NCBI GenBank assembly: GCA_964604705.1 | Contig: CAZSAP010000014.1 | Location: 1 to 64,000 of the forward strand | From: an uncultured bacterium | GTDB taxonomy: Bacteria > Oederibacteriota > JAAXVQ01 | Direction of reading: 5' to 3' | Length of the DNA: 64,000 nt | In this document: piece by piece, positions 49,827-63,993 of the stretch | How the letters are laid out: the number at the start of each line of letters is the position of its first letter | How positions within the stretch are numbered: position 1 is the first letter of the stretch | Program-made: the position numbers and the translations under genes | The notes under the pieces: model-generated | Databases searched by the model: none | The model's input: the letters and a program-made list of their open reading frames with translations, nothing else | Told to the model about the DNA's origin: nothing

Positions 49827-49860
49827 GTTAACTTTGTAAACGTAGGCACATCTATCCGCC
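49827..49860 (-). promoter_or_regulatory. Conserved palindromic promoter/operator-like motif (copy 1)
   Basis: GTTAACTTTGTAAACGT...ATCCGCC. About 30 bp upstream of the minus-strand gene start. Family consensus GTCAACTTTGTAAAGTTAAAC (core AACTTT-gta-AAGTT palindrome). Gene-sense reading contains TTGAC(A). Confidence 0.5.
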
Positions 49861-49887
49861 AAACAATGTCTCGAACATATTATTCTG

Positions 49888-49910
49888 CGGGCGTATGTAA
49901 TACGCCCCTA
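49888..49910. repeat. Palindromic element copy GGGCGTATGTAATACGCCCCTAC plus a 35-bp extension shared with 55162-55225
   Basis: Member of the GTAGGGGCGTAT-TGC-ATACGCCCCTAC family. The following ACGGCGCATGTTGTACGCCTCACGACT is repeated at 55190-55222. Confidence 0.7.
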
Positions 49911-50137
49911 CACATTTAACGGCGCATGTTGTACGCCTCACGACTGTTTGGTGCTTTGGGGGACGGAAACAACTTAGCAACTTAGACAAGACCTGAACCG
50001 TTAAACCCTTTTTCTATGTAGCCAGCGCAGGACTCGATCTATTCGCTTATGCCCCTATAAACGTCTACTTTCAGCTTATACTTTCCATTTTGATTTCTGG
50101 TCTTGCATCCGCCAACCAACGTCTCTGACTGCTAGTG

Positions 50138-50156
50138 GGCGTATGCAATACGCCCT
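50138..50156. repeat. Palindromic element copy (GGGCGTATGCAATACGCCC)
   Basis: Shortened member of the family. Confidence 0.6.
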
Positions 50157-50223
50157 CAGCCGGTTTGCCAAAAGGTGTCCGCTACCAAAATTTCAACAAT
50201 GAGTGAATTTATTCTACTTTTCA

Positions 50224-51726
50224 CTATCGTACAATGGCAATCTTGCCACTACCCAATTTTTTATACCGACCATTTGTTTTGGTTCGGGCCCGGTAGGTAT
50301 ATACGCCTGACGCAACATTGCCGCATTCCCAGACTGGAGCTACGGTGGAATCACTTTGTTGGATTCTAGCAATGCGTTCGCCACACATATTATATATTTC
50401 AGCATCAAACTCAATTCCATCGGTTTCCTGAAATGCAAAGGTCACTTTGGTATGAGCCGGGTTGGGAAACGTAATGACCGGTTTATCAGCTGTGAACGTA
50501 AGTGGCCATGACTTGGGAGGAACTTCTTTAACTGTCATTATCCGAATCTGTGGGTAGGATGCATTTTCCGCAGCTTCACTCCACCCCAGGTAAAGTTCGT
50601 TGTGGAAGATATCCAGATAAGGATTTTGGGCGTGGATATTTGGGTTAAGGTTGAACGAATTGGCTGACGCTCCAAACAACGCCCAAGATCCATTTTCAAA
50701 TTTTTGTAAGTAAATATTGTCATTTTCAATCCAGGTCAGATAAATAGTCTGGTCCAGTGCAGTAAGGATCGGCGAAGCGGCGTACGTTTCACTTATTTTT
50801 ATAAGCGGCGGTAATAATTCCCAGGCCGTTCCGTTATAACGCTTAACAACAATATTCGACGATTCCCGCCAAGTAACATAAAGGCTCTCGCCAATTTCCT
50901 TTAGACAGATTTGATAGGCGGATTTATTCTCAGAAATACTGATATCAAGGTTTAACCCTCCGCCATCAACACTCTCCCAGGCCGTGCCATTAAATCGTTT
51001 CAAAAACAAAACGGCAGTTTTTTTATTATCAACGTATTCAAGCCACGCTGCATACGGGACCCCTTTATATGCACATATTTTCGGATAAGTCCCGCTGTTG
51101 CTCGGATTGTTCACGCACGATCCCCCTACGGCTTCCCAATCTGTTCCATTAAATTTCTTTACATATATTTTTGTAGCGCCATACGCGACTTTATCTTCAC
51201 ACCAGGTTATATAGGGTTGGTCATTAATAATCTGAATATCCGGTTGGCTTGCGCTATATCCATCTAAATTTTTTAGTCCCCCACTTCCCATCAAACTCCA
51301 GGAGCTACCATTATAATATTTTGCATATACTTGAAACGGATAGTAATTATTTTCAGCCCATGTGGCAGTAACGCCATTGTTCCAGATAGCAATTTGGGGT
51401 TGTGATGCTGTCTCGTCAACATTTACGTTTAAACTGTCCGCTCCAAGAACCTGCCAATCTGTACCGTTATACTTTTTCACATACGCTTGCCAGGACTTAA
51501 AATTCCAAGCACCATGCATTGAATGTTCCTGCCACGTGCAATATAAAAACTCATTGTTGCTGCAAAAATCCGGCGAATAGGCTTCTTCCTGTGAATTCAT
51601 ATTCAAACTCATGCTTACTTTCCGAGTTTTTACAGCGGCCTGACACGGCAGTGCCCAAACTATCAACATTAATATCGCTGTCCATCGCGATATATATTTT
51701 TTTAATGTTTTGATTTTTAATTGCAT
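50224..51726 (-). CDS. Secreted repeat (beta-propeller-like) protein with T9SS-type CTD
   Basis: Signal peptide. Six repeats of Y(V/A)KK(F/Y)NGT(D/A)W(E/Q)xxG. CTD ITFPNPAHTKVTF...IYNMCGERI...GVYTYRARTKTNG...KIAIVR. About 42% GC. Confidence 0.65.
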   Translation of the reverse strand: MQLKIKTLKKYISRWTAILMLIVWALPCQAAVKTRKVSMSLNMNSQEEAYSPDFCSNNEFLYCTWQEHSMHGAWNFKSWQAYVKKYNGTDWQVLGADSLNVNVDETASQPQIAIWNNGVTATWAENNYYPFQVYAKYYNGSSWSLMGSGGLKNLDGYSASQPDIQIINDQPYITWCEDKVAYGATKIYVKKFNGTDWEAVGGSCVNNPSNSGTYPKICAYKGVPYAAWLEYVDNKKTAVLFLKRFNGTAWESVDGGGLNLDISISENKSAYQICLKEIGESLYVTWRESSNIVVKRYNGTAWELLPPLIKISETYAASPILTALDQTIYLTWIENDNIYLQKFENGSWALFGASANSFNLNPNIHAQNPYLDIFHNELYLGWSEAAENASYPQIRIMTVKEVPPKSWPLTFTADKPVITFPNPAHTKVTFAFQETDGIEFDAEIYNMCGERIARIQQSDSTVAPVWECGNVASGVYTYRARTKTNGRYKKLGSGKIAIVR

Positions 51727-63055: not shown

Positions 63056-63181
63056 ACTGTGATTCTCCTTGTGGAGTATTGAATTTTCGATTGTGTCTGA
63101 TTTAAAAATCACCGTACCGATCGCGAAAGGCAAAAGGTGCCAGCCACCAAAACCCCATCCCCGAACACTAGCACTTACTGC

Positions 63182-63517
63182 CTAATAATCCACGGTTACT
63201 TGAAAGCAGTCATTGGCGTCCGTGGCCGTGGCCGCCGTGAGCTTGGCCAGCATTATGGAGTGCACCCCCTGCTCCAGTTGAACGGGAATCTTTTTCAGCG
63301 GGAGCGTTACATGCACATTGGCCTGATTGCTAAAAAAGCGGATCTCGCCGATCGGTTTCTCGTCTAAGAGAATTTGGATGCCAATGGCTTTGTTGGCCTC
63401 GCTGGAAAACGCTGTGGCAGAAACCATCAACGTGCACGGTTCGTTGCCCTCGGCCGGAAACTGCGCCAGTGCGGGCAAAGGTCCTTGGGTGTCGAGTACT
63501 ATCTGGTCACGGTTCAT
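63182..63517 (-). CDS. Small beta-rich protein of unknown function (paralog 2)
   Basis: 111 aa. GAGGAG RBS. About 45% identical to 63560-63898. Shared core PCTL.VSAT...GEIRFF.N.SNVHV.LP...DAND.FQ...Y. Lies in an operon with the 940-aa protein. Confidence 0.6.
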   Translation of the reverse strand: MNRDQIVLDTQGPLPALAQFPAEGNEPCTLMVSATAFSSEANKAIGIQILLDEKPIGEIRFFSNQANVHVTLPLKKIPVQLEQGVHSIMLAKLTAATATDANDCFQVTVDY

Positions 63518-63559
63518 GCGTTTTTCTCCTCGGGAAGTAGTGGTGCCGGCATCGGCCGG

Positions 63560-63898
63560 CTAGTACTCAATGACTGCCTGAAAATAGTCGTTGGCGTCGG
63601 TAACGGTGGGTGGGGTCAGGGGCACCAGCTGCAAGGTGTGCGCGCCTATGTCGAGCGTAAGCGTGAAGAGGCGCACCGGCAGGCTCACATGCACGTTGGA
63701 CAAATTGCAAAAGAAGCGGATCTCCCCCACTTTCTTCCCGTCCACAACAACGGCCAAACCCACCGTGGCATTGGCCGAACTGGAGTACACGGTCGCCGAA
63801 ACCGACAACGTGCACGGGGCATTGCTCTCGGCTTGAAACGTCTTGGGTGTGTTTGGTACAGGACCGTACGTGTCGATCACAATCTGGTCTAGGGACAT
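63560..63898 (-). CDS. Small beta-rich protein of unknown function (paralog 1)
   Basis: 112 aa. GAGGAG RBS. First gene of a three-gene minus-strand operon. Confidence 0.6.
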   Translation of the reverse strand: MSLDQIVIDTYGPVPNTPKTFQAESNAPCTLSVSATVYSSSANATVGLAVVVDGKKVGEIRFFCNLSNVHVSLPVRLFTLTLDIGAHTLQLVPLTPPTVTDANDYFQAVIEY

Positions 63899-63973
63899 GA
63901 AAGACTCCTCTCGGAAATGAATGATCTCCCCAAGGGCAAGGTGCCCGAGGGGCGCAACTGAAACGGGGACAGC

Positions 63974-63993
63974 GTCAACTTTATAAAGTTAGC
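63974..63993 (-). promoter_or_regulatory. Conserved palindromic promoter/operator-like motif (copy 4)
   Basis: GTCAACTTTATAAAGTTAGC, 76 bp upstream of the first operon gene. Confidence 0.5.

Follow-up and report, generated by a model that had tools for sequence, protein, structure and literature searches.

In a 64-kb stretch of DNA from an uncultured bacterium (contig CAZSAP010000014.1, positions 1 to 64,000; hereafter the window), a palindrome-like motif lies in front of four genes and had been predicted to be a promoter overlapped by the operator of a shared regulator. We found that this motif is the 3'-terminal module, about 27 bases long, of a longer mosaic intergenic repeat of ~105-170 nt, which is lineage-specific. 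Read in gene sense, the unit consists of a GTAG-tagged hairpin resembling repetitive extragenic palindromic (REP) elements (GTAGGGGCGTATTGCATACGCCC), an A-rich linker (AAAAAGCAGTG), a box (GAGACRTAGGTTGGCGGAT(AAGG)), a variable spacer of ~10 nt, the core, and a tail of 9-10 nt, and the homology between copies ends past the tail. The best-supported mechanism, to which we give a probability of roughly 45%, would be that of a portable promoter propagated on this REP-linked repeat, with its -10 element in the left arm of the apparent palindrome.

The architecture was derived from alignments of the four copies in the window, named S1 to S4 by position, two partial copies, and one further copy in a JGI metagenome contig (L042), which brings the full copies to five. 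The sequences of the organism come from a metagenome-assembled genome and the Logan run ERR3839026, in which the contigs matching the window proteins are short and end at the repeats. A profile search with nhmmer recovered exactly these copies and none else, either in the window or in 46 loci, and for S1 the match to the whole unit covers 49810-49914 (E=3.5e-26). The S4 unit is cut by the end of the window, and its remainder is visible in bases 1-75 of the Logan contig L001. The spacer between box and core is 6 nt shorter in S1, where a deletion follows the box. The two partial copies consist of hairpin and box, diverge right past GGCGGAT and have no core; because they stop after the box, the modules are separable. 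All copies, full or partial, are oriented like the flanking genes (7/7), and every full copy, including that of L042, ends 35-130 nt ahead of a start codon.

The modules differ in conservation, with a mean pairwise identity over the five full copies of 89% in the REP hairpin, 61% in the linker and box, 48% in the spacer and 73% in the core and tail. The letters of core and tail that are invariant in the five-copy alignment read TA..TTT..AAAG.T.AC...G..C.C. Only five full copies were compared, and the core window was picked post hoc with the data already seen. The 48% invariant columns of core and tail are only modestly above the remainder of the unit. Over the whole unit, the window copies are 64-79% identical to each other and 62-80% identical to the L042 copy. 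Since the divergence within the window equals that from L042, the retained core positions are not simply due to recent duplication, and the family predates the two organisms or moved between them. The survival of core letters at such divergence suggests constraint; with five copies, the statistics are weak.

The core AACTTTGTAAAGTT was found in a scan of the window, at no more than two mismatches, at 49830-49843, 55098-55111, 59437-59450 and 63977-63990, and the whole 64 kb held no further match besides these four sites. The scan gave 7 strand-hits against 0.44 expected, and seven or more were obtained in 0/100 shuffles. As a full 21-mer, the motif is exact at 59434-59454 only; 55095-55115 has 2 mismatches, and S1 and S4 have more than 3. 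The motif spans of the four copies (49827-49844, 55095-55112, 59434-59451 and 63974-63991) are all antisense on the + strand, and each precedes a minus-strand gene. In gene sense, the core reads TAnnTTTRYAAAGTTRAC and the tail RCYGTCCMC. Pfam found DUF285 and Por_Secre_tail in the product behind S2, DUF3592 in that behind S3, and no domain in those behind S1 and S4. The original prediction that the motif stands before four otherwise unrelated genes was therefore borne out, with four positionally constrained copies and co-oriented genes. The flank CACATCT.TCC..ATCCGCC that it had described is real as well, being the antisense reading of the conserved box GAGACRTAGGTTGGCGGATAAGG. Its palindromic core stood in part: the motif is present four times, but the 6+6 dyad is perfect in only two of the four window copies (S3 and S4). 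It had also named membership of a mobile repeat with no transcription start nearby as a finding that would speak against it, and the first half of this was observed, as the motif belongs to a REP-linked repeat family.

The copy in L042 is the sole homologous unit found outside the window. There, the same flank lies behind an ORF6N gene and leads into two hairpins, the box, the core TAGGTTTACAAAGGTAAC, the tail, and an unrelated gene 130 nt further on. The ORF6N paralog A of the window and its ~220-nt 3' flank are collinear with L042 up to the tail, and beyond it the downstream genes differ. The ORF6N protein of L042 is 78% identical to paralog B of the window, which was used as the query, and the gene upstream of the unit is ORF6N in two window copies (S2 and S3) and in L042. 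No unit precedes the homologs (58% and 46% identity) of the 940-aa gene in the operon behind S4. The ORF6N homologs of no more than 67% identity (67% in L037-L041 and L043) and a 282-aa homolog in L036 have neither REP nor unit, and the syntenic relative L046 has no unit, having different genes, a Y1 transposase and different repeats beside mfd. Because of the collinearity with L042 and these unit-less homologs, we concluded that the motif is inherited with the upstream DNA and not with the genes it precedes. A repeat that travels in this way would therefore be at most a portable promoter, and it gives no evidence for a shared repressor site.

Pattern scans for further copies gave chance matches. 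In viral contigs, TTTRYAAAGTTRACRCYGTC had 19 matches, all within unrelated genes and with no box. The composite GTTGGYGGAT-N6-24-TTTRYAAAGTTRAC had 2 matches in the GTDB genomes, one of which was read and is a chance coding match while the other is chance-like, and 11 matches in the JGI metagenomes, which are chance. The element is thus absent or diverged in all sampled genomes but L042.

We propose that the unit carries an outward-reading promoter into the next gene. The left arm of the apparent palindrome would supply a -10-type hexamer (TAACTT, TAAGTT, TACGTT or TAGGTT), a TTG in or beside the box would serve as the -35, 16-18 nt upstream of the hexamer, and transcription would start in or just past the central ACAAAG and read into the downstream gene. 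The palindromic look would then be largely a by-product of the TTT..AAA around the -10 and start region rather than a selected feature. The hexamers of the five copies are TACGTT, TAAGTT, TAACTT, TAACTT and TAGGTT, in which T, A, T and T are invariant (5/5) and the two middle positions read CG, AG, AC, AC and GG. Left-arm TAnnTT accordingly has the conserved T(-12), A(-11) and T(-7) of a -10 element. A TTG precedes the hexamer in S1 (TTGTTT-N16), S3 (TTGGCG-N18) and S4 (TTGGTG-N18), and S1 keeps its TTG at spacing 16 despite the 6-nt deletion past the box. Upstream of 30843-31484, a TTGACA-N18-TAAATT common to the window and L046 was footprinted, with a diverged spacer, and the layout of S3 (TTGGCG-N18-TAACTT) matches it. 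The hexamers of the five copies are also similar to its TAAATT. It is because of the TAnnTT pattern and this canonical promoter layout of the lineage that an outward promoter on the repeat is favoured. A promoter role is the likeliest function of the motif, as had been predicted, but its -35 would be another than the one that had been assigned.

Several points weigh against a promoter on the repeat. The -10-like hexamers match TATAAT at 3/6 positions only, and a TTG at the proper spacing is missing in S2 and L042. Upstream regions in the window are only ~2-fold enriched in the loose pattern TTGnnn-N16-18-TAnnnT (1.27 vs 0.67 per kb), so that the promoter match is weak evidence. A -10 alone leaves unexplained why the right arm and tail (AAAG.T.AC...G..C.C) are so strongly conserved, and these letters could belong to an initially transcribed region or be bound by a protein. 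Gene conversion among the copies could mimic constraint. What points to a promoter is a resemblance to consensus, seen in few copies and in a core window chosen post hoc.

Other promoter and protein-site types were considered for the core and rejected. For the Bacteroidota/Chlorobi type TTG-N17-23-TAnnTTTG, TAnnTTTG is intergenic in only 5/47 occurrences, with 16% of the sequence being non-coding, only 2 occurrences are oriented upstream of a gene, and the final G is present in S2 only. On inspection of the sequence, the GG/GC spacing of sigma-54 promoters deviates by one in S2 and is lacking in the other copies, the AAC positions of the extracytoplasmic function (ECF) type AAC...CGT fall on the variable ones, and the IHF-like (integration host factor-like) WATCAANNNNTTR is matched at 6-7/9 positions only. 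Tandem repeats were also considered as an alternative and dropped. A scan for intrinsic terminators flagged none at the sites.

Table 1. Copies of the repeat unit and associated ORF6N genes (positions in the window)
Feature	Position	Strand	Remarks
S1, core and tail	49818..49844	-	TACGTTTACAAAGTTAACGCCGTCCAC in gene sense; 55 nt before ATG 49771 (gene 48794-49771), 28 nt before alternative GTG 49798 (48794-49798)
S1, upstream modules	49854..49941	-	box 49854-49871, GTAG-REP hairpin 49889-49911, second hairpin 49912-49941
Partial unit, REP hairpin and box, no core	50107..50159	-	past the stop of 50224-51726; E=1.8e-7
S2, core and tail	55086..55112	-	TAAGTTTGCAAAGTTGACACCGTCCCC; 35 nt before ATG 55059 of the DUF285/type IX secretion system (T9SS) gene (52714-55059)
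S2, upstream modules	55113..55214	-	diverged box and linker, GTAG-REP 55162-55184, second hairpin 55185-55214; run on into the ORF6N copy A 3' flank
ORF6N paralog A	55317..55835	-	~220-nt 3' flank ends in S2; collinear with the ORF6N 3' flank in L042
ORF6N paralog B	55948..56469	-	matches PADLOC candidate PDC-S05
Partial unit, REP-like hairpin and box, no core	58776..58832	-	between the genes for DUF3592 and M48 peptidase; E=5.8e-9
S3, core and tail	59425..59451	-	TAACTTTACAAAGTTGACACTGGTCAC; 38 nt before ATG 59395 (DUF3592 gene, 58907-59395)
S3, box and REP	59467..59525	-	box 59467-59484, GTAG-REP hairpin 59503-59525; directly past the stop of ORF6N copy C
ORF6N paralog C	59522..60040	-	S3 directly follows; bracketed by perfect 25-nt inverted REPs 59502-59526 / 60114-60138
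S4, core and tail	63965..63991	-	TAACTTTATAAAGTTGACGCTGTCCCC; 75 nt before ATG 63898 (gene 63560-63898)

The hairpin of the unit (GTAG-GGGCGTAT-NNN-ATACGCCC) has 11 copies within 43330-60137, which are in both orientations, all intergenic, and often without box or core. GTAG-tagged REPs were described by Di Nocera (2013, PMC3733652) and Nunvar (2010, PMC2817692), and the hairpin agrees with them in being an extragenic G+C-rich palindrome of 20-40 nt with GTAG at one end. The 64-kb window contains no Y1_Tnp gene, that is, no gene for a REP-associated tyrosine transposase (RAYT); the related contigs L037 and L046 have Y1_Tnp but different repeats. S1 and S2 share 68 nt, including a second hairpin, at 94%, yet their boxes have diverged, and a TTTCCATTTTCC tract is a further repeat module interleaved with the REP hairpin. 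A 58-nt hairpin-forming repeat occurs inverted at 48710-48767 and 60160-60217, with 81% complementarity between the copies. These hairpins lie just past the stops of 47679-48647 (+) and 60233-63055 (-), each oriented as the preceding gene, and the repeat adds one more module to the mosaic and is possibly a 3'-end element.

The ORF6N genes are themselves associated with REPs. Besides paralog C, paralog A also lies between REPs of opposite orientation (55162-55951). Bracketing by inverted REPs is the described arrangement of RAYT genes, whereas the enclosed gene is ORF6N here. The enclosed ORF6N protein matches the PADLOC candidate defence family PDC-S05 (E=1.7e-56).

In the original prediction, the motif was the operator of a dimeric regulator that overlaps a promoter with TTGAC(A) as its -35, which would place the four operons in one regulon, perhaps under the XRE or receiver (REC) protein of the island that spans 43-64 kb. 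The dyad AACTTT-NN-AAAGTT is indeed perfect in S3 and S4 and 5/6 in S2, the core is better conserved than the adjoining segments, and the right arm AAAGTTRAC shows almost no variation, something that a -10 by itself would not account for. Moreover, the island has genes for an HTH_3 protein (47367-47576) and for a receiver protein of the stand-alone kind (46871-47245), and TTGACA-type -35 boxes are in use in the lineage. The symmetry, however, is not kept: 4/6 arm pairs are invariant in the five-copy alignment, the other two vary, and all 5 variant cells break the symmetry with no compensatory change; the dyad of the L042 copy reads AGGTTT-AC-AAAGGT. No TAnnnT stands 16-18 nt downstream of TTGAC in any of the five copies, the sigma-70 scan flagged 0/4 sites, and the region has sigma-70 promoter-like sites at chance frequency (25 vs 23.8 expected). 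Because the homology ends ~10 nt past TTGAC, any -10 for it would lie outside the conserved unit. A core-like site is present neither in the 121-nt intergenic region of the XRE and REC genes nor elsewhere in the window, homologs of the 940-aa gene outside the window are without the motif, and the motif is passed on with the upstream repeat and not with the regulated genes. The dyad operator, the TTGAC(A) -35 and the regulon were thus not upheld, and we regard a common operator as quite unlikely.

It is also conceivable, although we consider it unlikely, that the core has no function of its own and hitch-hikes on a selfish or structural repeat of the kind of REPs and bacterial interspersed mosaic elements (BIMEs), with the hairpin as the selected part, for example by stabilising the mRNA 3' end of the upstream gene. 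The REP hairpin is the best conserved module, its copies in 43.3-60.1 kb are often without box or core, the modules are shuffled, as seen in S1 and S2, and the invariance of core and tail only modestly exceeds that of the rest of the unit. Yet all copies are co-oriented with the downstream gene and end shortly before it, the core is still recognisable at 58-77% pairwise identity in copies whose age equals that of the separation from the L042 organism, and the variation falls exactly on the two least constrained -10 positions. Another reading, which we hold to be improbable, takes the unit as a junction or crossover site of a cassette or insertion system, at which modules were joined in a variable island next to mfd; the candidates are an integron attC-like site, a tyrosine-recombinase site RYYYAAC-N8-GTTRAC, and a processing site of a REP-associated transposase. 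It would fit with the position of the units exactly between unrelated gene modules of differing G+C content (34-59%), the sharp break of homology past the tail, GTTTAAC/GTTTAAG-N8-GTTGAC in S2 and S3, the entirely different genes and Y1 transposase of L046 at the same place beside mfd, and the perfect inverted REPs around ORF6N copy C. On the other hand, the copies read GTTGACA/GTTGACG or GTTAACG and depart from the R' consensus GTTRRRY, a complementary R'' is missing, neither strand has a long-range hairpin, and Pfam scans of essentially all long open reading frames detected neither an integrase nor a recombinase or transposase in the window, which covers 64 kb of the 74,879-bp source contig. 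The modules contain several genes each, and the unit has no terminal inverted repeats or target duplications, its two ends being unrelated and the core being without an inverted-repeat partner. Besides the REP stem, single-strand folds gave only a weak core stem of 5-6 bp; apart from that REP stem, their z-scores were -1.6 to +0.4, except for the + strands of S3 (-3.1) and S1 (-2.1), whose scores come from the REP stem and from a short core hairpin formed locally. RNAalifold predicted 0 consensus pairs, Rfam at E<=1 gave only one spurious lncRNA match elsewhere in 43-64 kb, and the tRNA/tmRNA scan found none. A more elaborate proposal, which we regard as very unlikely, is that of an undescribed cassette system in this FCPU426-related bacterium. 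ORF6N genes bracketed by inverted REPs would be mobilised in trans by a REP-associated transposase and would take the box and core with them as a portable promoter or junction, and unrelated cargo would be assembled and switched on in the hotspot beside mfd.

The unit can be compared with several known systems. Like REPs and BIMEs, it has a 23-27-nt G+C-rich palindrome preceded by GTAG, which is extragenic, lies mostly just past stops between co-directional or convergent genes, is found in both orientations, and forms mosaics with other short modules; Di Nocera also noted that some REP families are regularly tied to other conserved tracts (PMC3733652). It differs in the directional box-core module of ~80 nt after the hairpin, which always faces the next gene, and in the confinement of the copies to the 43-64 kb island, the remaining 43 kb having none; no RAYT gene was seen in the window. 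Matus-Garcia et al. (2012, PMC3488235) described putative mobile promoters as conserved upstream segments before non-homologous genes. Our unit likewise provides a conserved stretch of 50-100 nt directly upstream of non-homologous genes that is shared with another organism, but the identity is 58-76% from box through tail and 62-80% for the unit as a whole, compared with their threshold of at least 80%. The promoter activity is putative both in those elements and in the present unit.

Snyder et al. (2009, PMC2649163) reported that the Correia elements of Neisseria create promoters at their ends. These are also small intergenic repeats whose end can supply the promoter of the adjacent gene and which can carry a protein-binding site. 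They have, however, terminal inverted repeats and TA target duplications, whereas the present unit has neither and is asymmetric, with a hairpin end and a core end. Integron attC arrays are similar in having a conserved repeat of ~100 nt between co-oriented unrelated genes of heterogeneous composition and in a site that belongs to the upstream unit. In contrast, our unit lacks the R''/R' consensus and a bottom-strand hairpin, the window has no intI, and our modules contain multiple genes.

If the unit is indeed a promoter, it would clearly exemplify the spread of a promoter on a REP-linked repeat, in a lineage of phylum rank that has neither cultured members nor a known promoter architecture, and would show how newly acquired island genes gain transcription signals. 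The finding also calls for caution, since a short palindrome that recurs before several genes can form an end of a longer family of repeats; the co-occurrence then reflects shared DNA ancestry and is not evidence for a regulon. A mosaic intergenic repeat is an ordinary kind of feature found here in an unusual organism, and the REP-bracketed ORF6N genes add to it.

The organism is related to the candidate division FCPU426 and does not belong to Bacteroidota; the best named matches of its ArgC are at 57-58% identity. Beside mfd (39643-43113), the window has more than 20 kb of low, heterogeneous G+C genes (34-59%) that are rich in REPs (43200-64000). At the same place, bases 1-2069 of L046, whose ArgC is 79% identical, contain different small genes, a Y1 transposase and CACGTTTCGCGTTTCGC arrays, which are also found in L037. 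Judged from these contigs, the region beside mfd is a variable hotspot. Within it, the operon 60233-63898 encodes two paralogs of 111 and 112 aa and the 940-aa protein, which has a glycine-rich GGxGG repeat region. This family is rare, with 24 homologs in 5.8 billion proteins and no Pfam domain, and the closest homologs (58% and 46%) are without the small paralogs upstream.

Other features were observed in the rest of the window. A second, unrelated intergenic motif, GCCTYAKCCTAGAAC(AG), occurs four times against 0.01 expected on the minus strand of the housekeeping part (4797-4811, 7700-7714, 7782-7796 and 28409-28423). It lies 75-194 nt upstream of the minus-strand genes 3915-4721, 5014-7587 (twice) and 27776-28306, and is possibly a promoter or regulator site. 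Past the footprinted TTGACA-N18-TAAATT (31485-31560, and ~12420-12500 in L046), ~35 nt are identical (GCAAACAATAATGTGGCTTTTTGCA) although ArgC is only 79% identical; this stretch may be a conserved leader or a small RNA, or the gene may have its true 5' end there. At 8875-13112, genes for an ImuB-like (IMS family) and a DnaE2-like polymerase have 63-70% G+C within surroundings of ~50-55% G+C, which looks like an acquired mutagenesis cassette. Two tandem paralogs of ~940 aa with T9SS C-terminal sorting domains, one with NosD-like repeats, are encoded at 15955-21629, and T9SS-tailed proteins are frequent across the window, being at least 7 in number.

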